The position numbers and the translations under genes were made by a program. The notes beneath the pieces were generated by a model. That model was given only the letters and a program-made list of their open reading frames with translations. It was not told the origin of the DNA and ran no database searches. This document shows, piece by piece, positions 2,790 to 22,700 of a stretch of DNA of 64,000 nt. This DNA comes from an uncultured Chloroflexia bacterium. GTDB lineage: Bacteria; Chloroflexota; Anaerolineae; B4-G1; SLSP01. Numbering within the stretch: position 1 is the first letter of the stretch; every line of letters begins with the position of its first letter. The stretch is taken from the NCBI GenBank assembly GCA_963751345.1, contig CAVVUS010000030.1:288001-352000 (forward strand), given 5' to 3'.

Positions 2790-3000
2790 CCACGACCGGC
2801 ACCACCAAAAGGGACGCAGATAGTGCCATTATAGCGCATCCGGAGGCATGCTATCGAGGAGTTCTGACTCCGTGAGACGGCGCGCCGAGCCGAACTCTCG
2901 TGCGTAACGCTTGCTCCCTTCGGGGCGAAGGACCTCCACTGCCCTGCCGGGATGGCAGACCCCACAGCCTCATTATGTACCCAACGAGGACGGTTGTGCC

Positions 3001-3121
3001 TCAACGATCGGCGTAACCCCTCTCCACCCAAAGCGGAGCACGCTCACGCTCGAGGTCATCTGAATGTGGAGCGGAAGATCCACGCTGCAGCGATGAAAGC
3101 CACTGGATTTTCGTTTACGCT
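3001..3121 (+). promoter_or_regulatory. Conserved promoter element, copy A (two dyads + -10 TACGCT)
   Basis: CTCCAC-N5-GCGGAG (3022-3038), GTGGAG-N6-ATCCAC (3066-3083), 32 nt, TACGCT (3116-3121). Aligns by eye with copies at 8608-8729 and 17640-17760. Confidence 0.7.
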
Positions 3122-3367
3122 GAGAAAGGCAAGTAGTGTGATGCTCACACCGCCGCCGACGGCGCGAGGAGCGAAAGGAGCGTTTGTCCGCAGTTTATGT
3201 ATTTGGCGATTCCGTTGACAAGGGCTGACAGCCAAGTCACGTGGGCGCAGTTCGCGATCTTTCAGTCGGGTATGCTTGGGCGATTTTGTCGCCAGTCCTG
3301 GGCCAATAGGCCCGGTAGGATCGGGCAAGTTGCGGTACAGACAGTATGAAAACAGAGGAGGTTATCT

Positions 3368-3821
3368 GTGGTACGTAAACTGATGTCCATCGGCATTGCA
3401 GGTATCTTGATTCTATTGGTCGTAGGCACCATCGTGCAAGCTCCGCCAGTGTTGGCCGGATTCACACCGACCCCCACGCCCACCGCCACGGCCACCGCTA
3501 CGGCCACGGCTACGGCCACCGCTACGGCCACAGCCACGCACCGCTACGGCTACAGCCACGGCGACCGCCGCACCGGCCACCACCGCACCGCCCACCGCCG
3601 CACCGCCCGCCACGGCTGTCTCACCAACCGTCACGCCAACTGTCACACCAGCTATCACGCCAACCGCCACGCCGGCGCCGCTTCTACCGGACACGGGCGG
3701 AGCGGCAGATGGGCCGAGCAATGCTCAGATTATCATCGTAGCCCTGGCCGGCGTGCTGCTCTTGCTTCTCGCTGCCATCAGCCTGGTCGTCCTCAAATCG
3801 GCCAGAACAAGAAACGGATAG
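3368..3821 (+). CDS. Small secreted Thr/Ala/Pro-repeat protein with C-terminal LPDTG sortase signal (frameshift ~3538)
   Basis: Signal peptide, then TPTPTP(TA)n. In the shifted frame: ...PAPLLPDTGG...IIIVALAGVLLLLLAAISLVVLKSARTRNG* (TAG 3819-3821), i.e. LPXTG + TM helix + basic tail. RBS GAGGAGG upstream. Confidence 0.75.
3470..3570 (+). repeat. Coding hexanucleotide-unit tandem repeat (ACN-GCN)n = (Thr-Ala)n
   Basis: acg gcc acc gct acg gcc acg gct acg gcc acc gct..., more than 10 units. Confidence 0.85.
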
Positions 3822-3836
3822 AGGAGGAGGTGTTCA

Positions 3837-5615
3837 ATGTTGCGTAAACGATCGATTGCCCGACTTGTCGCACTGACCATCATTGTCTCACTCGCCGCAT
3901 TGCCTTCCGCGGCGGCGCCCACGGCCACCTCGCCACCACTGAACACGGCGGATAGTTTTGTCGTTCTCGCCGGAACGGCAATCACCGACATTCCAACTTC
4001 TGCCATAACTGGGGATGTTGGGTTGAGTCCCGGCGCCGGGAGCAACTATGCCGGGCTAACGGCAGCAGAAGTAACCGGCACGATCTATGCCGTGGATGCG
4101 TCCGGCCCAGCCGGTTCAGTCGTTAACCCGGCCTTGTTGACCACCGCAAAGACCGACTTGGTCGCTGCGTATGGTGCACTCGCCGGCCAAGGTTGCGATA
4201 CCACCTACGGTGGTGTTCAGGATCTGGTTGGACTAACCCTCGTGCCAGGCGTCTACTGTGCGGATGCCTTTGAGTTATCGGGAACGCTCACTCTCAACGG
4301 GGCCAACACTGATGTTTGGGTGTTCAAGTCAGCGAGCACACTCATTACCTCCGGCACTGCCAACGTTGTACTTTCTACGGGCGGGGTGCCCTGCGACGTG
4401 TGGTGGCAGGTCGGCAGTTCGGCGACACTTGGCACGAACACTTCGCTGGCGGGCAACATCCTCGCCCTCACCAGCATCAGCCTGGCGACGGGAGCAAACT
4501 TGGACGGTCGGGCCCTGGCGCAAAATGCTGCAGTGACGATGGACTCCAACACCATCACCCTACCCATCTGCGCTTTGGCTGTGCCAGTCATTACCACAGA
4601 GATTCACGACAACGACCATGTGGAGGTGATCTTCGCCCAGATCGATACCGTCGTGCATGACATGGCGACGGTAGCCGGCACGCAGGGCATCACGCCCACG
4701 GGGACCGTTACCTTCACGGTCTACGCTAACCCGACCTGCGCTGCGCCCGGTACCTTCGCCGGGGCGGTGCCACTGAACGGGTTGGGTGTGGCAGACCCCA
4801 GCTATACGGCGACCCTGACCAGCGCCGGGCTGTCTTACCTGGCACACTACAGCGGGGATGCTACCTACGATCCGGCCGATGGCCCGTGTGAGGTTCTGGT
4901 CGCCCCGGGCATGCCAAGGATTACCACTGCGATCCACGACGCCAACAATGCAGAGGTGTTCGCTGCCCCGGTTGGTACCATGGTGCATGACACAGCGACG
5001 GTGACCGGCACCCTTGGCACACCTACGGGGACTGTTACCTTCACGGTCTACGCTAACCAGGCTTGCTCTGCGCCCGGTACCTTCGCCGGGGCGGTGCAAC
5101 TGGACGGGTTGGGTGTGGCAGACCCCAGCTATACGGCGACACTGACCAGCGCCGGGCTATCTTACCTGGCACACTACAGCGGGGATGCTACCTACGATCC
5201 GGCCGATGGCCCGTGTGAGGTGCTCCGCGCTCTACCGACGGCGGTGGAGTTGCTCTATTTCCAGGCCAACCCGCTGAGCGGCCAACAGGTGCAGCTGAAG
5301 TGGGCCACGGCGCTGGAGGTGGATAACTTCGGCTTCAACCTGTACCGTGCTAACGTCAATGATGTTGCAGTGGCGCGCGCCGGCGGACCGGTTCACTTTG
5401 AGCCGGCGGTCACGCAGGGCAGTGGCTCAGGCGCGACCTATGCCTACGTCGATACTGTTCCGACCGCTGGTCCCTGGTGGTACTGGCTATCCGATGTGGA
5501 TACCCACGGACTCGAAACGTTTCACGGCACGCCGATAAACACCACCGTACAATCCGGCCTCAGCTTACCGTTCCATGTCTATATGCCGCTAGCCGCAATA
5601 GGGAGCGGACATTGA
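3837..5615 (+). CDS. Ice-binding-like protein (DUF3494) with two Ig-like repeats and a C-terminal PTAVEL.../VYMP tail
   Basis: Signal peptide. DUF3494 hallmarks FVVLAGTAIT..ITGDVGLSPG, TLVPGVY, VWVFK, VWWQVGSSATLGTNTSLAGNILALTSISL, GRALAQNAAVTMDSNTI. Two ~109-aa repeats follow. Confidence 0.9.
   Translation: MLRKRSIARLVALTIIVSLAALPSAAAPTATSPPLNTADSFVVLAGTAITDIPTSAITGDVGLSPGAGSNYAGLTAAEVTGTIYAVDASGPAGSVVNPALLTTAKTDLVAAYGALAGQGCDTTYGGVQDLVGLTLVPGVYCADAFELSGTLTLNGANTDVWVFKSASTLITSGTANVVLSTGGVPCDVWWQVGSSATLGTNTSLAGNILALTSISLATGANLDGRALAQNAAVTMDSNTITLPICALAVPVITTEIHDNDHVEVIFAQIDTVVHDMATVAGTQGITPTGTVTFTVYANPTCAAPGTFAGAVPLNGLGVADPSYTATLTSAGLSYLAHYSGDATYDPADGPCEVLVAPGMPRITTAIHDANNAEVFAAPVGTMVHDTATVTGTLGTPTGTVTFTVYANQACSAPGTFAGAVQLDGLGVADPSYTATLTSAGLSYLAHYSGDATYDPADGPCEVLRALPTAVELLYFQANPLSGQQVQLKWATALEVDNFGFNLYRANVNDVAVARAGGPVHFEPAVTQGSGSGATYAYVDTVPTAGPWWYWLSDVDTHGLETFHGTPINTTVQSGLSLPFHVYMPLAAIGSGH
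4589..5220 (+). repeat. Intragenic tandem duplication, period 327 bp
   Basis: 4700-4893 and 5027-5220 are nearly identical at nucleotide level (TVTFTVYAN...YLAHYSGDATYDPADGPCEV twice). Confidence 0.9.
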
Positions 5616-5661
5616 ACCTGACATCACAGAAATAGCCTGGCTTACGGAAAAGCGAGTAGCT

Positions 5662-8600
5662 ATGATCGGGCAGAGACTGACCCGCGCGACTTTGATGATG
5701 ACGCTATGGCGCGGGATGTGCGTGAGCCTGATTGCTCTGGGCAGCACGCCAGTCAGCAGCGTGGGCGGCGCAGGGTTGACCGCGCCGCCCACGCCGACGT
5801 TGCGCCCGACAGTGAGCGCCACGGCCACAGGACTGCACGTGGAGTGGCGCGTGCCCGAGGCGCAGGTGGTGACACGTGCCGACGGGTCCACCGTGGTGCA
5901 GCTGCCTGGCGCCACGCCAACCGCCCTGCCGGGCGCGCCGGCAGTCCCTTTCTTCTCAGCTTTGGTCGCGGTGCCGCCCGGCGCGCTGCCCACGCTGCGC
6001 GTGGTCTCGCTCGAAGAGACCGAGCGGCTGTTGCCCGGCCCCTTGGCATTGACTCCAATCCCTGAAGGCGTCCAGCGAGACACTGCCGGGCACATCGTTG
6101 GCGGCGACTTCGCCCCGGCTCTTTCGGCGCGATCCGCGCCAAGCAATATCGATGAACCCGTCGTGCTGGAGCCGGTGGGTGTAGTGCGCGGCGTGTCCCT
6201 GGCGCGGTTGGTGTTCTATCCCGCCCGGCCGACCCGGGCATATCCGCAGACGCACCTGCGCGTGACGACCTACGTGTATGTCACCCTCACATTCTCCGGA
6301 CAGCCCGATGACCCGCATCGGGCGATGCGAGCATCGGGCGACCCTGTGCTAGCCGCCCTGCGTGCAGCGGTTATCAACCCGACGCAGGTGCAGCCGGCGA
6401 CCGCCCCTATTCAGCCCCTACCGGTCGAACTCGCCTCCGGACTCCAAGGCAGTGACTCCGGCGCGTCCTGGATGATCGAAGTCAGCGCGCCCGGGATAAC
6501 CGCGCTCACGTATGCAGCCCTAGCTGAGAGCGGCTTCCCAGTGGGGGCCGTTAACCCGCATATGCTGCGCCTGACGCGCGGAGGACAGGAAATCGCCGTT
6601 GAATGGGACGGCAACGGGAACGCGAGCTTTGAACCGGGTGAACGGTTGCTTTTCTACGCCGCACCGCGCTTCAGCCGGTGGACGGCAACCGACATCTACA
6701 TCCTCTGGCACGATGGACGTCACACCGGGACTTGCGGATGCAGAGCCGGCCGGCGAACCCGGCCGGCCAGCCCCTGGGGAGTGCCTGGGTCGAGGCCACG
6801 GCCGAAGCCAATCAACTGTATACCCCGGATTGCTTCTGTGGGACGCTCCCGCCCGGCCGCGACGGCGACCGTTGGACGTGGGATGATCTGAAACGTGCCG
6901 GCCACGCCACCGCCGCGTATACGCTCGCCCTTCCCACTGTGGATGCGACGCAGCCGGCTACGCTGACCCTTTGGTTGATCGGCTACACCGATCTACCCGC
7001 GATCGCCCCCGATCATCGCGTGGCCGCCACCCTCAACACGACGGCACTGGGGGCCATGGAATGGAACGGGCGGCAAGCAATCACGGCCACTCTGCCCATC
7101 CCCCCGGGGCTGTTGCGTCCCACCAATACCTTGACGCTGACCCTGCCCGGTCTGCTCGGCGTATCTGTCGAGGGCGCGTGGCTGGATGCCTTTTCCATTC
7201 GCTATGCTCGCGGCGGCGCGCCCGTGGGCAACACGGTCAGTTTCACCGGGCAGCCCACGCCGCACACTTATGGGCTAACGCTCAGTGCCACGGCGGGCCT
7301 TCGTGCTTACGACGTCACGAACCCGGACCTGCCGCTCCGCTTGACGGGCATGATCACAGACGGGGACACCACCTCGTTGAGCGATCCGCCGGTGGGCGGG
7401 CAACACCGCTACGCGTTGACGACGGACAGTGGCGTGCTATCCCCCGTAAGCGTGCGCCCGGTACAAACGCTGCAGGCGACCGGCGGCGCCGACTATGTGC
7501 TCATCGCGCCGGCCGACTTTGTCCCCGCGCTGGACGACTTGGTCGCGCTACGACGTGCACAGGGGCTGACCGTCGCCGTAACCGCCGTGCAAGCCATCTA
7601 TGATACCTTTGGGGACGGGCGACCGGATCCCGCCAGCATCCGCGCTTACTTGGCGCACGCTTATGCCACCTGGACGCCACGCCCCACCTATGTGCTGCTG
7701 GTCGGCGCGGGCAGCTTCGACCCGCGCCGCTATCGTGACGCCTCACCGCTCACGTGGGTTCCCCCGTACCTGGCCGACGTAGACCCGTGGGCCGGCGAAA
7801 CGGCTGCCGATAATCGCTACGTCACCGTGGATGGCCCGGATAATGTGCCGGATATGCTGATTGGCCGCTTGCCGGTCCGGACCTTGGGCGAGACGCAGAC
7901 CGTGGTGGCCAAAATCGTGCAGTACGAGACGCAGCCCCTCCCCGGTGGCTGGAATGGGGCGGTGACATTTGTAGCCGACGACGCGGATGGGGCGGGTGAC
8001 TTTGCGGCGGCATCCGATGCGCTGGCGTCCACCTATGTGACTGCACCCTTCACGGCGCAGCGCGTTTATTTCACGCCGCCGGCCACACCCCTAACAGCCA
8101 CTCAGCAGGCCGTGCTGAATGCTCTTAACGCCGGCGCGTTGCTGGTCCAGTACACCGGCCATTCATCGTGGCAACAGTGGGCTGCCGAGCGCCTATTCCA
8201 TTTGGACGATCTATCTGCGGTACACAACGACCGGCGCTGGCCAATCGTGCTCGAGATGACGTGCTTCACCGGCGCGTTTCACCGGCCGGAGCCCACACTG
8301 GACGTGGGATTACTCATACAGCAAGGCGGTGGCGCTGTGGCGACCTGGGGCGCGACCGGGTTGGGCGTGGGTACCGGCCACAACCTTCTGGCTGCGGGTT
8401 TCTTGCAAGCCGTTTTCAGCGATACGGTGCGCACAGTGGGAGAAGCTACTTTGACGGGGAAACTGTCTCTGGTCGCTGCCGGTCAGAATGGCGACTTGCT
8501 GGATACCTTTATGCTGTTGGGAGATCCGGCCCTGCAGATAAACAGGGCGATCGTCCCATGGGCCAGCCGGACCTACCTACCGTACGTGATGAGGCAGTAG
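5662..8600 (+). CDS. Peptidase C25 (gingipain/PorU-like) cysteine peptidase with propeptide (frameshift ~6720)
   Basis: Propeptide motif PGAPAVPFFSALVAVP. C25 motifs ADYVLIAP, IYDTFG, YVLLVGAGSFDP, PDMLIGRLPV, catalytic-like YTGHSS and MTCFTG, LLGDPAL. Ends RTYLPYVMRQ. Joined from ORFs 5662-6891 and 6678-8600. Confidence 0.88.
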
Positions 8601-8607
8601 GCCCATT

Positions 8608-8729
8608 GACTCAACAACACGCATCTTCCTCTCCACGCACAGTGGAGGCCACTCACACCCAGGTCGACAGAATGAGGAGCGGGAATTCCACGCTGCACCG
8701 ATAACAGCCGTCGCACTGGCATGTATGCT
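8608..8729 (+). promoter_or_regulatory. Conserved promoter element, copy C
   Basis: CTCCAC-N5-GTGGAG (8631-8647), GAGGAG-N6-TTCCAC (8674-8691), 32 nt, TATGCT (8724-8729). Confidence 0.7.
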
Positions 8730-8804
8730 GAATCATGTCCGTCGCGCGCCGGCAACATCGGGATCATCGGGTCTGCGATGACGGGCCGAATGAAAGGATG
8801 CTCT

Positions 8805-10290
8805 ATGAACACTAGGGGTCAGCACCACCAGGCTATTCTGCAAAGCCTCGCACACCGAGTGATGCTTGAGCGCGGTTTGTTGCCTGACTTTTCGGCTGAA
8901 GCACTCGCCGAACTGGACCGGATTCAGCTACCTGCCGTAGCTATGGATGGTGAGCTGGTGCGTGATCTAACTCACCGGCTATGGGCTTCGATAGATAACG
9001 ACGACTCCCGCGACCTCGATCAGATCACCGTAGCCGAGGCTGTGCCCATCAACAAAGTCAAGCTCCTGATAGCCATCGCGGACGTGGACGCGCTCGTCAA
9101 GACTGGGACAGCTATTGACGAGCACGCACGTCACAATACGACCTCGGTATATACCGCGGCCGAGATCTTCCCCATGCTGCCGGAGAAGCTATCGACAGAT
9201 CTCACCTCGCTCAACCTCAATGAGGAGCGCCTGGCTATCGTCGTTGAACTGGAATTGAGCGCGATCGGCTCACTTCTGAGTTCAGAGATCTACCGGGCAC
9301 GGGTCCGCAATCACGCGCAGTTGGCCTATGACAGCGTGGCCGCATGGTTGGAGGGTGGCGACGTGCCGGAAGCGGTCGCCGCCGTGGATGGACTGGCCGA
9401 GAATCTGCGGCTACAGGACCGGATAGCCCAAAAGATGCGGAATCTCCGGCATGTCCACGGAGCGCTGAGTTTGGAAACACTTGAGGCGAAACCGATCTTC
9501 GACGGTGAACAAATCCGCGATCTCGAAGTGCAAAACAAGAACCGCGCCACCGAGATCATCGAGGATTTCATGATCGCAGCCAACGGTGTTACCGCCCGCT
9601 ATCTCGCGTCCAAGAGCATTCCCTTCGATCCGACGGGTGGTCCGCGCGCCCAAACGCTGGGGCCGAATTGTCGAGCTGGCCAGGGAACATGAGTTCAGAC
9701 TACCGGATCATCCAGATTCAAAAGCGCTGGATAGGTTTCTCATCAAGGAGAAGGCCGCCGATCCGCTACGCTTCCCCGACCTATCCCTGGCGGTGATCAA
9801 GCTTCTCGGCGCGGGCGAATATGTAGCAGAGCTGCCCGATGAAGATGCTCCCGGACACTTTGGACTCGCGGTCAAGGACTATGCCCATTCGACCGCGCCG
9901 AACCGTCGCTATCCCGATCTGATCACACAACGCCTATTGAAGGCTGCTATGGCGTGTGGTGCCTGGCCCTACAGCGAGGATGAGCTGGACGCTCTGGCGA
10001 AACATTGCACCGAAGAAGAGGATGCCGCCAACAAGGTCGAACGGCAGGTCGGAAAATCTGCAGCGGCGCTGCTCCTTGAGTCGAAGATCGGCGAACGGTT
10101 TGACGCCATTGTCACGGGTGCTTCAGAGAAAGGTACCTGGGCCAGGCTGCTCAACATTCCGGTGGAAGGGAAGCTGATGCATGGCTTCGAGGGCCTGGAC
10201 GTCGGCGATCGGGTGCGCGTGCAACTGATATCGACCGACGTCGAGCGTGGCTTTATCGATTTCAAGAGGACGGGGCCTTCGAGGGATTAG
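8805..10290 (+). CDS. RNB-domain exoribonuclease (RNase II/R family, short form) with C-terminal S1-like domain (frameshift ~9620)
   Basis: SIDNDDSRDLDQ catalytic motif, IEDFMIAAN, GHFGLAVKDYAHSTAPNRRYPDLITQR. RBS GAAAGGA before ATG 8805. Confidence 0.9.
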
Positions 10291-10364
10291 GGCCATTGCA
10301 GCCGCTGCGGCTTTGGCGTTTTGTCGATGTTTGATACGCAAAGTTAAATGAAAGGATTACGATC

Positions 10365-11138
10365 ATGTTAGTCAAAGCCGAAACACTCAAGGGTTACAAA
10401 CTGGACAGCCTGGACGGGGAAATAGGGAAGGTCAGAGAATTCTACTTCGATGACCAGTACTGGACGATTCGCTATCTGGTCGCCGACACAGGAAATTGGC
10501 TTACGGACAGGCAGGTGTTGATCTCACCCCATGCGCTGGTCGCCGTGAATCACGAAGAGCAATACATCTCCGTCGACTTGACCAAGAAGCAGATTGAGGA
10601 CAGTCCATCCTTGGAGACTGACAAGCCCGTCTCCCGACAATTCGAGGAGGCTTACTACAGGTATCACGGATTGCCGACGTATTGGAGCGGCCCATACATG
10701 TGGGGAGCTTATCCCAACATTGTGCGTGACCGCGAAGAGTCGAGGGAATCCACCCAGGTTGAGAACCCGCGCAGAGTGGGACGAATCCGCCCAAGTTGAG
10801 AATCGCAGAACTGGGATGCCCATCTGCGCAGCACGCACGATGTGAGTGGCCATCACGTCGAAGCCCCAGACGGCGTGGTTGGCCACGTCGAAGATTTCAT
10901 CATCGATGAGGAGACATGGGCGATTCGCTATCTAGTCATCGATACACGGAACTGGTGGCCGGGGAAGAAGGTCTTGATTTCGCCGCAATGGATCGAGCGC
11001 GTGAGTTGGGACGAGTCGAAAGTATTCGTGAGTGTTCCCCGCGAGACGATCAAGCAGGCACCGGAATACACGGAGGAATCTCCGCTCACCCGGGATTATG
11101 AGGCCGCACTGCATCGCCATTACGATCGCCAAGAATAG
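10365..11138 (+). CDS. Tandem PRC-barrel domain protein (frameshift ~10770)
   Basis: Two copies of DG.(I/V)G.V..F..D...W.IRYLV.DT.NW....VLISP. Confidence 0.88.
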
Positions 11139-11149
11139 AGGAGCATCGA

Positions 11150-12628
11150 ATGAACATCTTGCTGGTTTACCCAGAGTTCCCGGATACCTTCTGGAGTTTC
11201 AAACACGCGCTCAGGTTCATCCGCAAAAAGGCCGGTGCTCCCCCCTTGGGGCTGTTGACCGTGGCCGCGATGTTACCGGCTGCATGGGAAAAACGGCTGG
11301 TAGATCTCAACGCAATCGGCCTGAGCCAAAGAGATCTGCTGTGGGCCGACTATGTCTTCATCAGCGCCATGGTCGTGCAGCGGGATGCCGCGCGTGCCCT
11401 CATCGCGCGCTGCAAGGAGGCGGGCGTGAAAGTCGTGGCGGGCGGCCCCCTCTTTACGATGGAGTATGCAGAGTTTCCCGAAGTGGATCACTTTGTACTC
11501 AACGAAGCTGAGCTCACCTTGCCGCCTTTTTTGTCAGATCTGGCCAACGGGTGCGCGCGCCATCTCTATACGACGACCGAGTATCCCGATATCCGCCAGA
11601 CTCCGGCGCCGCTGTGGCAGTTGGCGGATCTGAAGCAGTACGAAACCGTCAGTATCCAGTTCTCGCGCGGCTGCCCGTTCAACTGCAACTTCTGCAACGT
11701 CACGGCGCTTCTGGGCCATCGCCCACGCACCAAAACAGCCCCACAGATCATCGCCGAGCTGGACAGCCTCTACGCGCTGGGCTGGCGCAAGGGTGTCTTT
11801 TTCGTAGACGATAACTTTATCGGCAACAAGAGGCAACTCAAGGCCGAGATATTGCCGGCGTTGATCACCTGGCGCAAGGGAAAGATCGGAATGCCGTTCA
11901 ACACGGAAGCGTCCATCAATCTGGCCGATGATCCGGAGCTGATGACCCTGATGACGCAGGCCGGGTTCGAAACGGTCTTTGTCGGGATTGAAACGCCGAA
12001 TGAAGACAGCCTGGCCGAATGTAGCAAGACGCAGAACAAAGGGCGAGATCTGGTGGATAGCGTCAAGCGCCTCCAACGGGCGGGACTACAGGTGCAGGGT
12101 GGGTTCATTGTGGGCTTTGACAACGATACCCCGGCGATCTTTCAGCAGCAGATGGACTTCATTCAGCAGAGCGGCATTGTTACGGCAATGGTGGGACTGT
12201 TGCAGGCTCCACCAGGCACGCGCCTTTATGCCCGCATGCAAGAGGAAGATCGCCTGGTGGACGAGATGTCCGGCGACAACGTGGATGGCTCCACCAATAT
12301 CATCCCGAAGATGGGTCTGGCGCCGCTAAGGGCAGGCTATCGCCAACTCCTGGCGCATATCTATGCGCCCCAGTTCTATTACGAGCGTGTGTTGACCTTC
12401 CTCCGCGAGTATCATCCACCCAAAATCAGGACCTCCCCGGATCCGCAGTATCTCCTGGCCCTGGGACGCTCGATCTATCAGCTGGGTATCCGCGCGAAAG
12501 GGCGTGTCCACTATTGGAAAGTCTTTTTCTGGACACTGTTCCGCCGGCCACGCCTCTTCCCGTTGGCCATCACGCTGGCGGTTTACGGCTTCCACTTCCA
12601 ACAAGTGATCGCACTACATGTAGAGTAA
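11150..12628 (+). CDS. B12-binding radical SAM protein (DUF4070 C-terminus)
   Basis: PPLGLLTVAA B12-binding N-terminus; SRGCPFNCNFC CxxxCxxC motif; FFVDDNFIG; GGFIVGFDND. Confidence 0.9.
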   Translation: MNILLVYPEFPDTFWSFKHALRFIRKKAGAPPLGLLTVAAMLPAAWEKRLVDLNAIGLSQRDLLWADYVFISAMVVQRDAARALIARCKEAGVKVVAGGPLFTMEYAEFPEVDHFVLNEAELTLPPFLSDLANGCARHLYTTTEYPDIRQTPAPLWQLADLKQYETVSIQFSRGCPFNCNFCNVTALLGHRPRTKTAPQIIAELDSLYALGWRKGVFFVDDNFIGNKRQLKAEILPALITWRKGKIGMPFNTEASINLADDPELMTLMTQAGFETVFVGIETPNEDSLAECSKTQNKGRDLVDSVKRLQRAGLQVQGGFIVGFDNDTPAIFQQQMDFIQQSGIVTAMVGLLQAPPGTRLYARMQEEDRLVDEMSGDNVDGSTNIIPKMGLAPLRAGYRQLLAHIYAPQFYYERVLTFLREYHPPKIRTSPDPQYLLALGRSIYQLGIRAKGRVHYWKVFFWTLFRRPRLFPLAITLAVYGFHFQQVIALHVE

Positions 12629-12762
12629 GACACATCCCAGCCCACGGGTATGAGACGGCTGGAATTCGAGAACGCGCGCATTGACGCAGGTCCGGCAGAC
12701 GAGCTGAAGGAAATGGGGGGTGGACATCACCCAACAAGCAAATCGCGAAGGAGTGGAATCCT

Positions 12763-13413
12763 ATGTTCCCTATCGGTGATGATGATAGCTCTCGTAGAAC
12801 TGTTCCGTTGGTCACCTATGCCCTGATAGCTCTGAACGTCCTGTTTTTCTTTGTAGAGCTGAGTGGTGGTGATGCTTTCATTGAGAAGTGGGCTTTCGTT
12901 CCTAGCCGCTTCCTTGCCAATCCCGTCGGTGATTTTCTGACGCTCTTCACAGCCATGTTTATGCATGCCGGATGGCTTCACCTGGGTGGCAACATGCTCT
13001 ACCTGTGGATCTTCGGTGACAACGTGGAAGACCGTTTCGGGCACATAAAGTTCACAATCTTTTACTTCCTCTGTGGCCTCGCGGCGACTTTTGCCCAGCT
13101 GGCGTTTAGCGCCGGCTCAAACGTACCGAATTTGGGCGCATCGGGAGCGATTGCCGGCGTGCTGGGGGCCTACATTTTGCTGTTCCCGCAGGGAAAGGTC
13201 AGAGTACTCCAGGGCCGACAAGTGATCCAGGTACCTGCCCTGATCGTCATTGGGCTTTGGATCGTTCTGCAGTTCTTCAGCGGCATTGGTTCGATTGCCA
13301 ACACAGCGGAGACGGGTGGCGTCGCCTACATGGCGCACATTGGTGGATTTGTCGCCGGGTTCATCTTGACCGTTTTGTTTCGCGGGAATCGAAGAGCGCC
13401 GGCCACGCGCTGA
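12763..13413 (+). CDS. Rhomboid family intramembrane serine protease
   Basis: MFMHAGWLHLGGNMLYLWIFGDNVE, GASGAIAG, AHIGGF. Confidence 0.93.
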   Translation: MFPIGDDDSSRRTVPLVTYALIALNVLFFFVELSGGDAFIEKWAFVPSRFLANPVGDFLTLFTAMFMHAGWLHLGGNMLYLWIFGDNVEDRFGHIKFTIFYFLCGLAATFAQLAFSAGSNVPNLGASGAIAGVLGAYILLFPQGKVRVLQGRQVIQVPALIVIGLWIVLQFFSGIGSIANTAETGGVAYMAHIGGFVAGFILTVLFRGNRRAPATR

Positions 13414-13442
13414 ATTCTCACTGTATGGGGAGGTAAACCAAA

Positions 13443-14114
13443 ATGACAGATAGCTACCTTGAGAACTTGCTGGGGGAAAACGAACGCATTATCCTCATCA
13501 CCCGCCAACACTGGCTGGTCCTGATCGGCCGAATCCTGGCCCAAGGCGTGCTTGCCTTGGCCATGGGCATCCTGATCACCCTCATCTGGCGCTTCTGGCT
13601 CCCCCTTTCGCTGGTTCCCCTGGCCTACCTCCTGTTGATCCTGCCCTTACTGGGCATGCTGAGGAATGTGACCATCTGGAGGAGCCGGAAATACGTCGTC
13701 ACAAACTGGCGGGTGCTCCAGATCTCGGGGGTGTTCTCCAAAGAGGTGACGGATTCCTCTTTGGAGAAGATCAATGATATCAAATTGGAGCAATCCTTTT
13801 TGGGGCGGCTGTTGGACTATGGGGACCTCGAAATCCTGACTGCAAGCGAATTGGGCGTCGACCAATTCACGCATATAAGGCAACCCATCCGCTTGAAGAC
13901 GGCCATGTTGAATGCAAAAGAGGAACTGGAACATGGTCAGGCTGGGTTGGGGCATAGCTCGGGGGTAGATATCGCCGGGCCGATTGAGCAGCTAGGCAAT
14001 CTGCGAGACGAGGGACTGCTGACGGAAGAGGAGTTTCAGCAACAGAAAGCGCAAGTGCTGGCCAAGATGCAGAATGCCGATCAATCGCACGACAGCAAGC
14101 ATCCGTCGGGATAG
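13443..14114 (+). CDS. Membrane protein with bacterial PH domain and SHOCT domain
   Basis: Two TM helices; YVVTNWRV...QSFLGRLLDYGDLEI; C-terminal LRDEGLLTEEEFQQQKAQVL. Confidence 0.82.
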   Translation: MTDSYLENLLGENERIILITRQHWLVLIGRILAQGVLALAMGILITLIWRFWLPLSLVPLAYLLLILPLLGMLRNVTIWRSRKYVVTNWRVLQISGVFSKEVTDSSLEKINDIKLEQSFLGRLLDYGDLEILTASELGVDQFTHIRQPIRLKTAMLNAKEELEHGQAGLGHSSGVDIAGPIEQLGNLRDEGLLTEEEFQQQKAQVLAKMQNADQSHDSKHPSG

Positions 14115-14121
14115 GGCAAGC

Positions 14122-15396
14122 ATGTCACTTGATCCATCTTCGAAACCGTATGACTGGGCCTTTCGGCGAGTCGTGTGGGCGACCCTTGTTTTTGTCTTCG
14201 TCGCCCTGAGCTTCTGGCAGCTCTATCGGTTCTACCAAGTCGTTTTCATCCTGTTGCTCGCGATGCTGATGGGCACGGTGATCAGGCCGACCGTAGCCTG
14301 GCTGCAACGGCGGGGACTTCCCCGGTTAGCGGGGGGCATTCTTGTCTACCTCCTACTGCTTGGCTTTCTCACCGGTTTTGTGCTGCTGTTGTTTCCACTG
14401 ATCGTTGAGCAGGGGACGACGATTGCCGCGGCAGTGCCGGACTACTACGATAGCCTGCGCGTGTGGATGGTCGGCCATTCCAATCAGCTGATCGTGCGCC
14501 TCAGTGCATTCCTCCCCGCCGTGCTGCCGGGCCTGAAGCCGATCCAGCAGACGGGACAACAGGTACTGGCGTCTGCAGGGCAAGCGCTAGGTTACCTTGG
14601 CTCGGCGACTAAGGTCATCTTTGTCGCCACGGCTATTCTGCTGCTGGCCTTTTACTGGATGCTCGACGGACCGCGAACCCTCCAATCATGGTTGCTGCTG
14701 GTTCCCAAGGACCGGCGTGAGAGCATTGGCGATTTGGTTACCGCCATTGAGACCAAAGTGGGCGCCTATCTTGTCGGACAAAGCGTCCTGTGCCTGGCCA
14801 TCGGCCTACTGGCGCTGGCGGCCTATCTGCTGATCGGCCTACCCAATGCCCTGGTGCTGGCGCTCATGGCGGGCGTGCTAGAGGCCGTCCCGATGATTGG
14901 GCCACTGCTGGGCGCGATTCCCGCGGCGGTCATCGGCTTGTCCATTGGCCCTACCAAGCTGATTTGGGTGGTCGTCGCCACGATCGTGATTCAGCAAGCG
15001 GAGAACATCGTGCTAGTGCCGCGCGTGATGCGCAAGGCGGTCGGGGTCAACCCATTCGTCTCCCTGCTGGCGTTGTTCGCCTTTGGTTCTCTATTCGGCA
15101 TTGCCGGCGCGCTAATGGCAATTCCTATCGCGGCTATTGCGCAGCTCATACTCAATCGCTTCGTCTTTGGGCCCGAGGCAGCAGGGCCGGAGGTCTCGGA
15201 AGGGCGTGACTATGCCAGCCGGCTGCGCTATGAAGCGCAGGACCTGGCCCAAGACTTACGCAAGCAGGCACGGCTCAAGAAGGGTGGCTCGGAGCTAAGG
15301 GTCAAGCAGATCGATCAGGTGATGGATGAGATTGAGTCCATCACCACCGACCTTGGGACGCTGCTAGCAAAGGCCCGAGACTCGGGCACGCCATGA
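14122..15396 (+). CDS. AI-2E family transporter
   Basis: Multi-TM; VPMIGPLLGAIPA, QQAENIVLVPRVMRKAVGVNP, FGIAGALMAIP. Confidence 0.88.
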   Translation: MSLDPSSKPYDWAFRRVVWATLVFVFVALSFWQLYRFYQVVFILLLAMLMGTVIRPTVAWLQRRGLPRLAGGILVYLLLLGFLTGFVLLLFPLIVEQGTTIAAAVPDYYDSLRVWMVGHSNQLIVRLSAFLPAVLPGLKPIQQTGQQVLASAGQALGYLGSATKVIFVATAILLLAFYWMLDGPRTLQSWLLLVPKDRRESIGDLVTAIETKVGAYLVGQSVLCLAIGLLALAAYLLIGLPNALVLALMAGVLEAVPMIGPLLGAIPAAVIGLSIGPTKLIWVVVATIVIQQAENIVLVPRVMRKAVGVNPFVSLLALFAFGSLFGIAGALMAIPIAAIAQLILNRFVFGPEAAGPEVSEGRDYASRLRYEAQDLAQDLRKQARLKKGGSELRVKQIDQVMDEIESITTDLGTLLAKARDSGTP

Positions 15397-16631
15397 CCAA
15401 GACATTGATACGGTTCAGTACAGCGGTAATGACCACACTGCTGGCGCTGGTGGTGCTATGGCAGTTCCGCATGGTTGCCGTCTATGTGCTGGTCTCAGTA
15501 GCGCTTGCGGCAGCGCTGCGCCCACTGGTGAACCGCCTGGTCGGGCGAAGACTAGTGGTGCGCGGGGCTTGGATTCTGCTTTACGTGGTGGTCCTGGGCG
15601 GATTCGGCCTGCTATTGTTTTTGGCCGGCAGAGGAGTGATCGGTGAGATTCAGGACTTGGCCCGTACCGTAGCGGTACAAGATGCATGGAAGCTGCCCAC
15701 ATGGTTGCAGGGCAGCGCGTTCCAAGGGGTGCTGGCCGCATGGCTGCCCCCACCGAGTAGGCTCTTCGAAGCAATTACCGGCGACCAAGGGCAGCTCGTG
15801 CTGCCGGCCATCTTCGGTTTCACGCAGGGCATTGCCGGCGTCGTGAGCCGTGTACTCATCGTTCTACTCCTGAGCATCTATTGGATCGTCAATCAAGTCC
15901 ACTATGAACGACTCTGGCTGTCGCTGCTTCCGCCGGGGCAGCGCAGGCAAGTGCGTAGCATTTGGCGTACCATCGAACCGAATCTTGGTGCTTACATCCG
16001 CAGCCAAGCAGTCCAAAGTCTCCTGGCGGGGCTAGTGCTGGGCCTGGGTTACTGGGCGCTCGGGTCACCCTATCCGATCCTGTTGGCCCTGGTTGGTGCT
16101 CTGGCAGGCCTGATACCCATGGTTGGGGCGCCCCTGGCGGTGGTCTCACCCCTCTTGGTGGGGCTACTGACCAGTGTACAGCTTAGCCTGGTTACAGTTC
16201 TGTATACCCTCGTCGTCTTGGTTGCGCTGGGGATATGGGTCTGGCCGCGCCTCTTCAACCGCAGGTGGGACAATCCCATTCTCACCATCGTTCTACTCAT
16301 AGCCCTGGAAAGCGCTTTTGGCCTCCTTGGCATTCTCATAGCGCCGCCCATATCGGCCGTATGCCAAATCCTGTGGGACCTCCTGGTCAGTCATCGGCGT
16401 GCCTCCGGCGCTGCAGCCCAGGTTTCGGACCTGAAGGAGCGGCAGGAACGGGTGGGGGCCATCATCAGGGCAATGGACGAGGCGCCTCCGGCATTGGTGA
16501 CGAGTAGTATGGAGCGGCTTACCGAGCTGATTGCTGAAGCAGAACCCGTTCTGCACGCCGTCGAGCCACTCCAAGTGACGAAGGCTATTATCACTGCTGA
16601 AAGTGGTTCGTTTCTACCCCCAAAACCATAG
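15393..16631 (+). CDS. AI-2E family transporter (second paralog)
   Basis: Multi-TM; AALRPLV, LIPMVGAPL, FGLLGILIAPP; ATGA overlap with the previous gene. Confidence 0.82.
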   Translation: MTKTLIRFSTAVMTTLLALVVLWQFRMVAVYVLVSVALAAALRPLVNRLVGRRLVVRGAWILLYVVVLGGFGLLLFLAGRGVIGEIQDLARTVAVQDAWKLPTWLQGSAFQGVLAAWLPPPSRLFEAITGDQGQLVLPAIFGFTQGIAGVVSRVLIVLLLSIYWIVNQVHYERLWLSLLPPGQRRQVRSIWRTIEPNLGAYIRSQAVQSLLAGLVLGLGYWALGSPYPILLALVGALAGLIPMVGAPLAVVSPLLVGLLTSVQLSLVTVLYTLVVLVALGIWVWPRLFNRRWDNPILTIVLLIALESAFGLLGILIAPPISAVCQILWDLLVSHRRASGAAAQVSDLKERQERVGAIIRAMDEAPPALVTSSMERLTELIAEAEPVLHAVEPLQVTKAIITAESGSFLPPKP

Positions 16632-16642
16632 GGGGACACGCG

Positions 16643-17617
16643 ATGATCGTACCCAGGGTAAGACGCTATGTCGCACAGCTCCGGCAGCAGGGCATCCGCA
16701 ACGTGCACCGGCTCAACAAGCTGACACACGGTTGGTTAGGAATAGTGGCAAGGGCGGCCCAAGCAACCCTCAAGCCCGAATCAGGGATTATGGCCGCGGC
16801 GATCGCCTACTACGCCCTCTTCTCCCTCTTTCCCATTACGCTCTTGAGCATCGCGATTGGCAGCTTCGGCCTTGGCCCGGCGATGGAACAACAAGCCATC
16901 ATTCAAAGGCTGGAGTTTATCGCGCCTGCCCTAGGCCAGTTGTTGGGCAAGAATATCGACGCAATCATCCAAGCGCGTGGGCCCATCACCGGTGTTGCTT
17001 TGGTGAGCCTGATCTGGTCCGCCTCTACCGTTTTCTACACGCTGACACTCTCTCTGAATGATATGTGGGAAATCAGACGTCGTCGCGCGGTCTGGAAGCG
17101 CCGTGGCTTAGCCGTGTTGTCTGTCTTGGTCCTCGTGGGCCCGGCTCTCTTCCTGGCGTCATTTGCCAGCAGTATGATTGCCAACCTACGCCCCTGGTTG
17201 CCCGACGCACTCATCCCGATCGGGAGCGGCGTCAGTTTGGCGCTGGCGCTTCTACTCGACGTCGTCTCGTTTATGGTGCTCTACATGCTGCTTCCGCGTG
17301 GCACGTCTACCTGGCGCGAGATCATGCCCGGCGCAGTCGGGGCAGGCTTGCTTTGGGAACTGGCGAAGAAAGCATTCTTGTCTTTTGTCTCCACCTACGT
17401 CTCTGTCTCGAACCTGGTCTATGGTTCAGTGGCCGCCGTTATCGCCTTCCTGGCCTGGGCCTATCTGACCAGCCTGATCTTCCTCTTTGGCGCTTACTTA
17501 AGCGTCTCTTACCACCGGCTCAGGCAGCAGCAACGAAAAGCGACAGCCCCAGACACAGATGTCCCCTTGTCAGATCGTATGGCTGTTCCTGCCATCGGTC
17601 CTGGGGAGCTGCCGTGA
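16643..17617 (+). CDS. YihY/virulence factor BrkB family membrane protein
   Basis: AAAIAYYALFSLFP, VYGSVAAVIAFLAWAYLTSLIFLFGA. Confidence 0.9.
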   Translation: MIVPRVRRYVAQLRQQGIRNVHRLNKLTHGWLGIVARAAQATLKPESGIMAAAIAYYALFSLFPITLLSIAIGSFGLGPAMEQQAIIQRLEFIAPALGQLLGKNIDAIIQARGPITGVALVSLIWSASTVFYTLTLSLNDMWEIRRRRAVWKRRGLAVLSVLVLVGPALFLASFASSMIANLRPWLPDALIPIGSGVSLALALLLDVVSFMVLYMLLPRGTSTWREIMPGAVGAGLLWELAKKAFLSFVSTYVSVSNLVYGSVAAVIAFLAWAYLTSLIFLFGAYLSVSYHRLRQQQRKATAPDTDVPLSDRMAVPAIGPGELP

Positions 17618-17639
17618 ACCCCTCTCCAGCCGGCCTGAC

Positions 17640-17760
17640 TCAGCGATCGGCATAGACCCCTCTCCACATCAAGCGGAGCAGGCTCAAAGTCAGATCATCT
17701 GAGAGTGGAGCTACAACTCCACACCGCATCGATGAAGGCCACAGCAGTGTGATGTATGCT
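17640..17760 (+). promoter_or_regulatory. Conserved promoter element, copy B
   Basis: CTCCAC-N5-GCGGAG (17662-17678), GTGGAG-N6-CTCCAC (17705-17722), 32 nt, TATGCT (17755-17760). Confidence 0.72.
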
Positions 17761-17794: not shown

Positions 17795-18433
17795 GTGAAG
17801 AAGGGCGGCATGGTTACTCAGTTGGCTCGTAAGGGGTGGCTGATGGTGGTGCGAAGTATGATCGCCCTGCTAATTGGCTTGGCGGCTCTCCGGCCGGGCG
17901 CCACTCTGACGACACTTGTGCTGTTATTTGGCCTCTGTGCGCTGGCAGACGGCCTCTTGGCCCTGACCGTGGTGAGCCGGCTTGAACGCTACGAATTGGA
18001 GCACGGATGGATGTTGCTGCTCAAGGGACTGGCAAGCATCGCCATCGGGGCACTTACCTTCCTTTGGCCGAGCGTCACAGTGCCGGCACTGGTCTCTCTC
18101 ATCGCCGCCTGGTTGATCCTGACCGGCGCGTTTGAGGTCGGAGCGGTGCTTGATCTGCGCAACGCAGCCGAGCGCGAACGGCGGATGGCTTGGGACGCCC
18201 TGGTCAAGCGCCAGACCCAAATGGCTTGGGACGGCAGGGTCGAGCGCAAGACCCGCTACGCGCACGCTGAGCAGATGGCCTGGGACAAACAGAGCGACCG
18301 GAAGATGCGCGGCGCAGGCGTTGGAGGGTTCGGGCACGGACTATACGCGGGAGCGGTGCACTACTCTGCCCGGAGCACCGCAATCGTGAATGAGGGCAGT
18401 CTATCTGCGGGATCCGGGAGGGTCGAATTATGA
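17795..18433 (+). CDS. HdeD/DUF308 family membrane protein with atypical MAWD-repeat C-terminus
   Basis: PGATLTTLVLLFG..ALADG, LLLKGLASIAIGALTFLWP, LIAAWLILTGAFEV; then three MAWD repeats. Confidence 0.75.
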   Translation: MKKGGMVTQLARKGWLMVVRSMIALLIGLAALRPGATLTTLVLLFGLCALADGLLALTVVSRLERYELEHGWMLLLKGLASIAIGALTFLWPSVTVPALVSLIAAWLILTGAFEVGAVLDLRNAAERERRMAWDALVKRQTQMAWDGRVERKTRYAHAEQMAWDKQSDRKMRGAGVGGFGHGLYAGAVHYSARSTAIVNEGSLSAGSGRVEL

Positions 18434-18667
18434 ACAAGGACATATTCGAGGGCAAGTGGAAGCAGCTACAGGGTCAGGCCAAACGAGTGGTGGGGCAAGC
18501 TCACCGACGACGACCTGAAGCGAGTCGGCGGCCAGTTCAACCAATTCGTGGGCGTGCTCCAGGTAGAGTGTGCCTACACCCGCGAGCACGCCGAAGAGGA
18601 GATCGACCGGCGAATGGCGGAGCACGAAGCCCACCGGCAGGAGGTCGCGACTCCGGCCAGAAAATAA
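18430..18667 (+). CDS. csbD: CsbD family general stress protein (frameshift ~18485)
   Basis: MNKDIFEGKWKQLQGQAK(E)WWGKLTDDDL...YTREHAEEEIDR; TAA 18665-18667. Confidence 0.85.
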
Positions 18668-18775
18668 CTCGATAAACCTATCCCTGCAAGTCTACATGGC
18701 AGTTGGGGACAGGTCATCGCGAATCGTGTGGAATATGGACAACTCGTGATCTTAAGACTTAGTACGGAGAAACCT

Positions 18776-19040
18776 ATGCCAAACCTTCTGATTTACCTAA
18801 TCGTTGCAGCGGTGATCGGCTGGGTAGCGAGCGAGCTCATGCATGACCGCTCGGGCCTGCTGCTCAATATCATCGTGGCCGTCGTGGGCGCTTTCCTGGC
18901 CGGCTACTTCCTCAGCCCCATCTTCAGGGTCGGGACCATCAACGATGCGATCACCATTCCGACTATGCTGGTTACGCTTGCTGGGCGCCGTCATCCTGCT
19001 GGCAATCGTCAATCTCTTCCGCAGGGGTAGGCGGCGATAA
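18776..19040 (+). CDS. GlsB/YeaQ/YmgE (transglycosylase-associated) stress membrane protein (frameshift)
   Basis: VIGWVASELM...GLLLNIIVAVVGAFLAG...LLGAVILLAIVNLFRR. Confidence 0.85.
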
Positions 19041-19124
19041 CCTGCTGATGGTCCGATGTCAGCTGTCCCATCAAGGGAAGGTCAAGCGATATCCCGTTAT
19101 CTGAGGGATACAGGGAGGACAACC

Positions 19125-19621
19125 ATGTCTATGAATCAACCGACCGATCAAGTGCCCGTGGATCGGCGCGAGGAAACCGTGGTCACCCAGCAACCGGGCT
19201 ATGCGGCGACCGAGCAGGTAACTCGCGATGTTGCTGCCGAGCGGCAGCAGACTTTGTTCCAGATCAACCGGATCATCTGGAGCATTCTGGGCCTACTTGG
19301 AGATCCTACTAGGGCTGCGCTTCATGTTCAAGTTGATTGGGGCCAATCCAGACAGCGGCTTTGCCGCTCTCATATATGGAATCACGGACCTGTTCGTTGC
19401 GCCGTTTGCACTGCTTGGTGGGAACGCCTGCATCCGGCGGAATGAGCCTCGAGCTGACGACCCTGATTGCGATGGGAATCTATGCCCTGATCACTTGGGG
19501 CATCGTCCGCGTGATCCAGATCGCTACGGATCGTCCCAGGGCGCGCACGGTCACGCGCTCGGTATGGGAGCAGACAGGCCCGGGCACGGAACGTACGACA
19601 CACACCACCCGCAGCGGATAG
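19125..19621 (+). CDS. YggT-like membrane protein (frameshifts)
   Basis: LEILLGLRFMFKLIGANPDSGFAALIYGITDLFVAPF...LELTTLIAMGIYALITWGIVR across frames. Confidence 0.72.
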
Positions 19622-19679
19622 GCGCAATTCAGACCTCAATCGAGCGTTTTATCAGCCCATAACACAGGAGAAGAACAGA

Positions 19680-20030
19680 ATGAACGAACATGACTACGAA
19701 TGCGCAGACGATAACAGTCAACTGGGAGGCTTTCTTGCCGGACTGCTCATAGGTGGATTGGCCGGCGCCGGGGCGATGCTGTTCCTGGCGCCGCAATCGG
19801 GGAAAAAGACACGCGCCACGGTTCAGAAGAAAGGCATCGAGCTGCGCGATCAGATGGTCAAGACTGTGGAAGATGCGTCGGCGCAGGTCCGCGATAAAGT
19901 CCACCAGATCTCGGACGATGTTCAGGAGCAGGCTGAGGACCTACAGCAGCGTGGGCAGGATGCGATCGATGAGCAAAGGGACAATTTGTCCCACACCCTC
20001 AAGGATTTGGGGAAGGCCGTCAAGTCTTGA
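19680..20030 (+). CDS. YtxH domain-containing general stress protein
   Basis: GFLAGLLIGGLAGAGAMLFLAPQSGKKTR followed by a coiled coil. Confidence 0.88.
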   Translation: MNEHDYECADDNSQLGGFLAGLLIGGLAGAGAMLFLAPQSGKKTRATVQKKGIELRDQMVKTVEDASAQVRDKVHQISDDVQEQAEDLQQRGQDAIDEQRDNLSHTLKDLGKAVKS

Positions 20031-20164
20031 TGGCGACGGGCCGGATAGCGCTGCAATAATCCGGTCAACCGGTTGCGCGGAAGTATCAGCTTTGGCTTTG
20101 CCTTGTAGCCCGGGCAACAGTTGCTCCGGCGGCAGCCAAACAGCTTTTCAAAAGGAGAAGACCC

Positions 20165-20323
20165 ATGTTGTGGACGATCATCGTGATACTCGTCGTACTA
20201 TGGTTGCTCGGCTTTTTCGGTCGGAACATCAGCTCAAGATTCCCACAGACCGGCAGTTGGATCCATCTCTGATCGTTATCGCCGTCATCCTCATCATCTT
20301 GAGACCTCCTTGGGGTAGTGTAA
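20165..20323 (+). CDS. Small lmo0937/DUF5670-like membrane protein (indels)
   Basis: RBS AAGGAG; MLWTIIVILVVLWLLGFFG...GSWIH..IVIAVILIILR; missing from the ORF track. Confidence 0.75.
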
Positions 20324-20407
20324 CCCTCTCTCGCGGCGATGATGTGGCCGGGTCCGCCGGAAGCTTGCGTGACGGACCCGGCTCCAGGTAATGGGAAAGG
20401 AGACTCT

Positions 20408-20963: not shown

Positions 20964-21031
20964 AACTAGGTGGACACAGAGAATCGCACCCGCAAGGAAG
21001 AGGAAGAGACCCTAGGTTGACAGGCTTACCG

Positions 21032-22060: not shown

Positions 22061-22362
22061 GCGCCGACCGTTACCTTGCCGCAGCCCGCACTGTAGCCCG
22101 ATCAATACCAGGCATCCTGGCACAACGCGGGCTTACGCCGTTCATCAGCCGCTTTGTTCTGACCGAGACAGAACAAGGCCATGCCTGGCTGTTTGTTGTC
22201 CTGGAGATCGGTCCTCAACAGCCCCTAGAAGACTACGCTGCTGATGATGTGTTGGAGTATCTGTCCACGGCACTACACGGGCTTCCGGTCGTCATGAGCG
22301 ATTCCTACGGCCTGCGGTATGCCGTGCTTCTCGGTTCCCCAGATATGTTAAGAAATCCTTAG
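22057..22362 (+). CDS. Hypothetical protein
   Basis: 101-aa ORF, ATGA-coupled to the previous gene. Confidence 0.55.
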   Translation: MSADRYLAAARTVARSIPGILAQRGLTPFISRFVLTETEQGHAWLFVVLEIGPQQPLEDYAADDVLEYLSTALHGLPVVMSDSYGLRYAVLLGSPDMLRNP

Positions 22363-22382
22363 CTAGATAGGAGACGGAAATC

Positions 22383-22691: not shown

Positions 22692-22700
22692 GCTTGCCTG

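Follow-up and report, generated by a model that had tools for sequence, protein, structure and literature searches.

A DNA element of about 125 bp, present in three copies (A, B and C) in a 64,000-nucleotide (nt) stretch of an uncultured Chloroflexia bacterium (contig CAVVUS010000030.1, positions 288,001 to 352,000; hereafter the window, whose first letter is position 1), is probably a promoter cassette that is read as DNA by a NarL-family response regulator encoded beside the founding copy. Typical general-stress genes of these uncultured bacteria would thereby be placed under a two-component switch. An earlier note on this DNA had proposed an activator-dependent promoter common to three gene runs, and this is still the best reading: spacings are fixed, the genes that follow are co-oriented, no Rfam family matches, and the copies are not scattered in the manner of miniature inverted-repeat transposable elements (MITEs).

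Copies of the element

The genome of the window (G000, 5.4 Mb) carries the window on contig C30. When the full architecture described in the earlier note was written as one regular expression, the only matches on the two strands of the 5.4-Mb genome were those at window positions 3022, 8631 and 17662. Copies A, B and C were also recovered by a repeat finder as a single repeat family (70–72% identity over 71 nt), and the repeat, situated where it had been placed before, is both real and rare. Two further copies, D and E, were found in the genome with a profile built from A, B and C, the next-best match reaching an E-value of only 1.1. The genome scan with a weight matrix that the earlier note had suggested gave the same picture: when the matrix covered the proximal 60 nt and its training set was 51 copies of other origin, A, B and C score 58–61 bits and only the five known copies exceed 12 bits, compared with at most 7.7 bits for four column-shuffled control matrices. 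All copies in the window lie upstream of plus-strand genes, as had been claimed, but the view that each heads an operon of its own has to be amended for two of them. B and C start about 10 and about 20 nt, respectively, past the preceding stop codon, no terminator-like site was found between the upstream gene and either copy, and both are therefore regarded as internal promoters in one co-oriented run.

Architecture of the element

Anatomy was counted on 60 distinct copies, 56 of them non-redundant, with three unanchored matches (one a truncated copy in genome G039) and four near-identical copies dropped; for spacings, one copy with too little flank (leaving 55) and then seven without a clear distal half-site (leaving 48) were set aside. 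The proximal module has the consensus GTGGAG-N6-ATCCAC, 8 nt, GATGAC, 18 nt, TATGCT (56 non-redundant copies). Its 18-bp box, of the GTGGAG-N6-[A/C]TCCAC type, begins 50 nt upstream of the plus-strand −10 hexamer, at exactly this distance in 49/55 copies, and the start of the proximal GTGGA is separated from the GATG block by 26 nt in 49/55 copies, by 25 in four and by 27 in two. The distal CTCCAC lies 42–44 nt ahead of the proximal box in 44 of the 48 copies. The rightward −10 hexamer reads TATGCT in 32 and TATACT in 11 of the 56 non-redundant copies. The −35 region, weak according to the earlier note, is so in A, B and C, which are among the weaker copies, but not family-wide, where the commonest hexamer, ATGACA (28/56), is one base off TTGACA.

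A TATAAT-like hexamer on the minus strand, 49–51 nt from where the distal GTGGAG begins, accompanies all 16 kinase-facing copies, in 13 of them at exactly 50 nt (non-redundant set). It is also present in four copies that do not face the kinase gene (A, two at contig ends, and one facing a metallo-beta-lactamase-fold gene) and absent from the other 28 of the 48. Since this hexamer is outside every model used, it constitutes an independent sign of a two-way promoter, and a pseudo-symmetric, bidirectional promoter is the best reading of the element in its kinase-side form. In G025, a form shorter by about 32 bp (three turns) occurs at two places and reads as two boxes 5 bp apart, and in a G207 copy a terminator-like hairpin occupies the middle with the distal–proximal spacing still at 43; together, these copies suggest that the sequence of the middle is less important than helical phase. 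Judging by the shorter form, the upstream palindrome that the earlier note called dyad 1 may not be a separate site but the place where two boxes meet. The spacing of the outer boxes is 23 bp in the short and 55 bp in the long form, three turns apart, the inner and outer weak halves being not parsable from sequence.

Two local features of the copies are recorded here in their own right. In copies directly 3′ of the regulator gene (L091:691-814, L092:2571-2695 and L030 near 11663), the regulator's terminator-like hairpin lies inside the element, with the spacing kept. The 240-nt leader of copy A contains a small palindrome (window 3135-3151), possibly a second operator or a hairpin, and a similar stretch follows the kinase-side copy of G011.

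A candidate kinase–regulator pair

The earlier note had stated that the window holds no regulator gene. A strong candidate pair lies just outside it, the kinase and regulator genes being 1.5–4.4 kb left of the window and divergent from the truncated copy D. The regulator has a receiver and a LuxR-type helix-turn-helix (HTH) domain (PF00072 and PF00196), and the adjacent kinase combines PF07730 and PF02518 with a PocR domain (PF10114). In the predicted model, the kinase protein is filled by PocR, GAF and kinase domains; structure prediction followed by a fold search returned only generic tandem-GAF and phytochrome matches, from which no ligand is assignable. Three cysteines of the PocR domain (C48, C62 and C83) are invariant. 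PocR domains bind small hydrocarbon derivatives, according to PMC13602510. The structural relatives of the regulator comprise 5hev (E 3.5e-60), VraR (2e-55) and DevR (PDB 3c3w, E 1.4e-38). A full copy of the element directly faces the kinase gene in G002, G011 and G020, and copy A would be the functional heir of the original kinase-side cassette.

Co-occurrence of the element with the pair

All 16 kinase orthologues (at least 72% identity) with upstream DNA face an element, which is full in 12 cases, short in one, a left half with a full copy behind it in one, cut by a contig end in one and truncated in one; two more kinase loci begin inside the kinase gene and are outside these 16. Among the 71 genomes of the family, 15 carry both kinase and element, two the element only and 54 neither, all 15 kinase genomes being among the 17 element genomes. 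Without the five training genomes, the corresponding numbers are 10, 2 and 54 (66 genomes). Outside the training set, a sample of 400 genomes of the class contained 26 with a kinase match, and the element was tested in these and in 54 genomes without one. It was found in 5 of the 80, which are the five best kinase matches (two weakly, at E 1.5e-4 and 7.7e-4), in none of the 21 genomes with weaker kinase paralogues and in none of the 54 without a kinase match. An order-wide search for the element found it in 18/145 genomes, one of them new (G787); in this genome, identified by the element alone, the kinase (77%) and the regulator (85%) were then found adjoining the element, as predicted. A regulator-blind pattern scan of metagenomes yielded 10 matches, five of them kinase-facing, with one match a duplicate of another and one identical to the G039 copy.

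In a quick tree, the regulators form a single clade of 18 rows with a Shimodaira–Hasegawa-like approximate likelihood ratio (SH-aLRT) support of 98, and within it the rows of the window's genus enclose some from other families, a pattern suggestive of transfer or patchy loss. Outside this clade, 3 of 25 rows have the proximal module nearby, and a wider family may share the box. The 43 full-length kinases listed are 69–100% identical, and those with an organism name belong to the Anaerolineae. No close kinase orthologue turned up in a phylum-wide sample of 300 genomes, and the exact proximal pattern matched 0/301 phylum genomes, a weak test in that the pattern misses the copies of G000 too. Separately, more distant kinase–regulator pairs (regulators 65–72% identical) were observed near a proximal-only module at L093, L095 and L148, a hint of a wider family with the same box.

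Downstream genes and genomic setting

The coordinates of the element copies, the candidate pair and the surrounding genes are compiled in Table 1. Orientation was counted with a mechanical rule that takes the next open reading frame (ORF) after each of 53 copies, three with short flanks having been dropped. The next ORF is co-oriented in 45/53; seven of the eight exceptions are, in the author's reading, short opposite-strand frames that overlap or precede a co-oriented ORF, and only the truncated copy D clearly faces a convergent gene. Among 45 hand-chosen first ORFs assigned with Pfam, DUF308 (9), CsbD (5), GlsB-type (3), RNB (2) and ice-binding (2) families recur, 11 have no family, and others encode rhomboid, Band 7, P-type ATPase, cupredoxin and other kinases. 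Further along the co-oriented runs of relatives, USP, a 2,811-amino-acid GH94 protein, a long catalase and a 2-oxoacid oxidoreductase are encountered. CsbD, YtxH, GlsB-type, DUF308, USP and long catalase are families typical of the general stress regulons governed by SigB, RpoS or EcfG, and it is from such gene families that the label of a stress regulon would be justified. In the G000 assembly, RNB and PRC are each split in two ORFs.

Table 1. Element copies, candidate pair and neighbouring features (plain numbers are window positions; C30 is the contig carrying the window and C13 another contig of G000)
Feature	Position	Strand	Description
Copy A	2998..3121	+	CTCAAC 3000-3005, distal half-site CTCCAC 3022-3027, inner GCGGAG 3033-3038
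Copy A, proximal part		+	Proximal box/dyad 3066-3083, -35 3093-3098, -10 3116-3121
Copy A, leftward -10 hexamer	2972..2977	-	CATAAT; 50 nt from start of distal GTGGAG half-site read on minus strand
Copy B	8608..8729	+	CTCAAC 8610-8615, CTCCAC 8631-8636, GTGGAG 8642-8647
Copy B, proximal part		+	Proximal box 8674-8691, -35 8701-8706, -10 8724-8729
Copy C	17637..17760	+	CTCAGC 17639-17644, CTCCAC 17662-17667, GCGGAG 17673-17678
Copy C, proximal part		+	Proximal box 17705-17722, -35 17732-17737, -10 17755-17760
Copy D	C30:286608		1.4 kb left of window; truncated after -35, rightward -10 lost; counterpart of copy A's leftward promoter is directed at kinase gene
Copy E	C13:145814		Heads receiver-CheW-CheR-CheW-MCP chemosensory cluster (L002:12814-17650); unlinked to main block
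Kinase gene	G000:C30:286509-284310	-	Soluble PocR-GAF-GAF-HisKA_3-HATPase
Regulator gene	G000:C30:284310-283633	-	NarL-family response regulator, receiver + LuxR HTH
Gene run after copy A	3368..8600	+	Secreted Thr/Ala-rich ORF (starts 3368), Ice_binding + Big_3_5, Peptidase_C25
Gene run after copy B	8805..17617	+	RNB (ATG 8805), PRC, radical SAM-DUF4070, rhomboid, bPH_2, two AI-2E, YihY/BrkB
Gene run after copy C	17795..22553	+	DUF308 (ORF 17795-18433), CsbD-like, GlsB-type, YtxH, further small/unknown ORFs
tRNA-Phe	22700..22774	-	Right end of block; present likewise in G002, G011
SNF2 helicase gene, 5′ part	1..2857	-	Own sigma-70-like promoter 2857-2828; between copy A and copy D/kinase/regulator
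154-bp segment	2922..3073		Duplicated at G000:C30:286532-286683, 86% identity; repeats (D, A) flank SNF2-SWIM pair

Several neighbouring genes were noted in passing. USP and the 2,811-amino-acid GH94/glucoamylase protein, which is presumably cyclic beta-glucan synthase-like, recur downstream of elements at three loci (L139:3157-13101, L140:5483-14860 and L133:2-6627), the last of which also carries the long catalase. In several genomes (L019:12566-13003 and relatives), the element is followed first by the gene for a 146-amino-acid protein that has no Pfam match, and a sulphur oxygenase reductase gene (PF07682; L133:13277-14227) lies between two element copies of G039. The SNF2 helicase and SWIM zinc-finger pair spans window 1-2857 and G000:C30:286716-288000. 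The SWIM gene was found in one of five relatives, there on another contig. At the other end of the block, no att-like duplicate of a piece of tRNA-Phe was found near the left end. Elsewhere in the window (25697-33034), three related genes, labelled signal-peptidase-like by eye from the translation, make up a repeat family, D3.

Alternative explanations

Some observations weigh against a promoter cassette read by the linked regulator. One concerns pairing: two-sided change occurs in 7/12 dyad pairs, as against 3.1 in shuffles (reached by 1/500), which would suit a structured cis-acting RNA of two hairpins carried in read-through transcripts. B and C do lie inside a co-oriented run without terminators, 81% of dyad cells pair, and the antisense folds of B and C have z-scores of -1.9 and -2.0. 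Such an RNA is nevertheless very improbable. Sense folding is unremarkable (z -1.24, +0.20 and -1.00), RNAalifold proposes six pairs with none covarying, and an Rfam scan of window 1-26000 with E up to 5 returned no family match for the element, only a tRNA and one sub-threshold long non-coding RNA match. That dyad substitutions break pairing, as the earlier note had it, is true of most cells but not all, given the two-sided changes; these amount to 10/431 cells in 7/36 sequences, two of which are sister copies of one genome and one of which is poorly aligned. Moreover, 19% of cells are unpaired, one central pair being unpaired in 23/36 sequences and another in 30/36, and the founding copy sits between two divergent −10 boxes, so placed that neither transcript would cover it. 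Resemblances to riboswitches and to attC were judged by eye and discarded. Another possibility, a small mobile repeat or a site for recombination (attC-, MITE- or repetitive extragenic palindrome (REP)-like) that shuffles gene modules, would account for the variation in order and content of the modules between copies among G000, G002, G011 and G020, for the 154-bp direct repeat formed by D and A around the SNF2–SWIM pair (four close relatives yielded no SWIM gene), and for a block that ends at tRNA-Phe. The modules between copies hold up to about nine genes, compared with the single-gene cassettes and the linked tyrosine integrase of an integron attC array. This explanation is highly unlikely, since ordinary homologous recombination between repeats could also shuffle modules and the best-conserved bases are those of the −35/−10-like pair. 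No integrase or transposase was present among the ORFs scanned (no genome-wide integrase search was made), and two exact patterns had 0 matches in viral contigs. The random orientation or location downstream of genes that the earlier note had named as marks of a MITE or REP is not what was found: the copies, just five in 5.4 Mb, are co-oriented and upstream of genes, the truncated D alone standing against a convergent gene.

It is also unlikely that the element is a promoter served by an alternative sigma factor or an unlinked regulator, with the two-component pair just a linked target. The kinase operon is placed opposite the element in the manner of a target, sigma-70 region 2 has 19 matches in the genome, all of them outside the block, and the rightward −10 hexamers are consistently unlike the leftward TATAAT, so that two sigma factors may be involved. 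In addition, two fragmented genomes, G004 and G106 (640- and 750-contig assemblies), carry the element without an orthologue that a direct search could find, their best regulators being 62% and 65% identical. However, upstream inverted repeats are not sigma recognition sites, and the element tracks the orthologue clade across families. Kinase and regulator are the most recurrent clusters (12 and 10 loci) among 231 ORFs of 16 loci, with the qualifications that the regulator cluster includes paralogues and that several of the 16 loci had been selected by way of the kinase; in 36 ORFs scanned from other clusters, a part of the 119 unlabelled clusters, no family of DNA-binding regulators was seen. 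For a promoter cassette read by the linked regulator, there are further difficulties. The kinase gene of G000 is split by a 1-nt indel (at G000:C30:285507) relative to G002, where the 733-amino-acid frame is intact, and the rightward −10 is missing from copy D. Compared with G002, about twenty 1-nt indels over the shared block (window 8700-20900 plus the kinase) interrupt several genes, among them those for the kinase, RNB and the CsbD-like and GlsB-type proteins; as the flanks show gap openings at about the same frequency, sequencing or assembly error is a likelier cause than gene decay, and the kinase frameshift, too, is more likely a sequencing error. Kinase and element usually reside in one block, so that their co-occurrence is partly linkage, related genomes are not independent, and the only clearly unlinked copies are E (G000:C13) and one at G021:C1. 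The count of TAnnnT at a fixed offset (53/56) follows in part from how the profile and the anchoring were made, in contrast to the box-to-GATG distance. Finally, conservation is weak in the outer half of the distal box (40–60% per base), which makes the parse into boxes uncertain and weakens the view of dyad 1 as a junction.

Proposed mechanism and significance

In the proposed mechanism, the soluble PocR-GAF-GAF kinase would sense a cytoplasmic cue and phosphorylate the regulator, dimers of which would occupy the proximal 18-bp box (about -62 to -45), with further, cooperative binding to the distal sites along the same face of the helix. The bound complex would then recruit RNA polymerase to a promoter that is presumably weak alone (ATGACA-17-TATGCT). 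By virtue of the mirror geometry, the same complex could boost the kinase–regulator operon, giving positive feedback, and whole-cassette duplicates (B, C and E) would place more gene runs under the same control, other contigs included. A more far-reaching scenario is offered tentatively, as a possibility on the doubtful side. The Anaerolineae might possess a portable general-stress regulon in which a two-component activator replaces the alternative sigma factor: a self-activating block of PocR-GAF-GAF kinase and NarL-type regulator would move between lineages and grow by duplicating its two-way promoter cassette before new genes, and recombination between copies would reshuffle modules, like an integron without an integrase.

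No description of such a regulon or motif was found for this class in the open-licence literature, and a candidate regulator, a predicted operator and a list of targets are supplied here for it. If the assignment is true, DUF308, DUF4070 radical SAM, PRC, YihY, AI-2E and ice-binding proteins would be tied to one signal, stress genes of the CsbD/YtxH type would be run by a two-component activator, and there would be a way to approach the ligand of a PocR domain carried on a kinase.

Comparison with known systems

DevS and DosT, the kinases of the DevRS/DosRS(T) system of Mycobacterium tuberculosis, have a GAF-GAF layout with a haem-binding GAF sensor for O2, NO or CO, and promoters under this system carry two to four tandem boxes. 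The candidate pair resembles this system in combining a NarL-family regulator, with DevR among its structural relatives, and a HisKA_3 kinase with tandem GAF domains, and the kinase matches the catalytic domains of DevS and DosT. The likeness extends to the sites, for DevR acts, according to the main text of PMC3177182, through tandem palindromic 18-bp boxes with strong and weak members, helical phase-dependent spacing, divergent promoters and control of its own operon, all of which are here suggested by sequence. In a base-by-base comparison with that main text (supplementary Dev-box tables apart), G3, G4 and, in one half, C7 are common to the DevR box and the element if both boxes are centred alike. 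Assuming the same centre of symmetry, C7, which DevR needs in both halves, is present in the left half only, in about 60%, and position 5 is A (about 90%) in both halves, where DevR requires G (PMC3177182, main text); the element is therefore not considered a member of the DevR/DosR regulon. Further differences are the position of the proximal box, centred near -53 rather than at -42.5 or -63.5, the extra N-terminal PocR domain of the kinase, the spread of targets by duplication of the 125-bp cassette, and a distribution that, as found here, is confined to Anaerolineae.

The nearest solved relatives of the regulator belong to the LiaRS/VraSR/CesSR group of cell-envelope stress systems, with nearly identical recognition helices that read TVRTHVSNI versus TVKTHVSNI, and an A-rich stretch in or beside the site is a common trait. 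LiaS and VraS are membrane sensors that come with LiaF, whereas the kinase described here consists, by its domain model, of PocR, GAF and kinase domains only. The LiaR/CesR site is given in PMC4447274 as an inverted repeat of 16 bp, TCAGHCTnnAGDCTGA, with an additional A4 stretch. Membership in the LiaR/VraR/CesR regulon was ruled out, the box being unlike that repeat (PMC4447274) and the kinase lacking, by its domain model, a membrane-sensor layout.

With the SigB, RpoS and EcfG regulons, the system has target families in common. The RpoS-type −10 is CTATACT, which the rightward −10 resembles, and SigB promoters read GTTT...GGGTAT. No such pair appears in the consensus or in the −10/−35 hexamer counts of the 56 copies, and the earlier statement that these promoters do not match SigB thus stands. 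The difference lies in the upstream inverted repeats and the linked two-component pair, which favour an activator over a sigma switch. With PocR and MtaR, which are AraC-type proteins, a PocR sensor domain, boxes upstream of −35 and positive autoregulation (here predicted) are shared; as PMC13602510 describes them, these are one-component proteins that control catabolic operons, whereas here the PocR domain is part of a kinase, with stress and surface genes as the predicted targets. Taken together, the system appears to belong to the NarL/LuxR type of two-component regulon: a receiver–LuxR HTH regulator and a HisKA_3 kinase were both found, and an inverted-repeat site is conserved at a fixed position upstream of the target promoters and of the pair's own operon.

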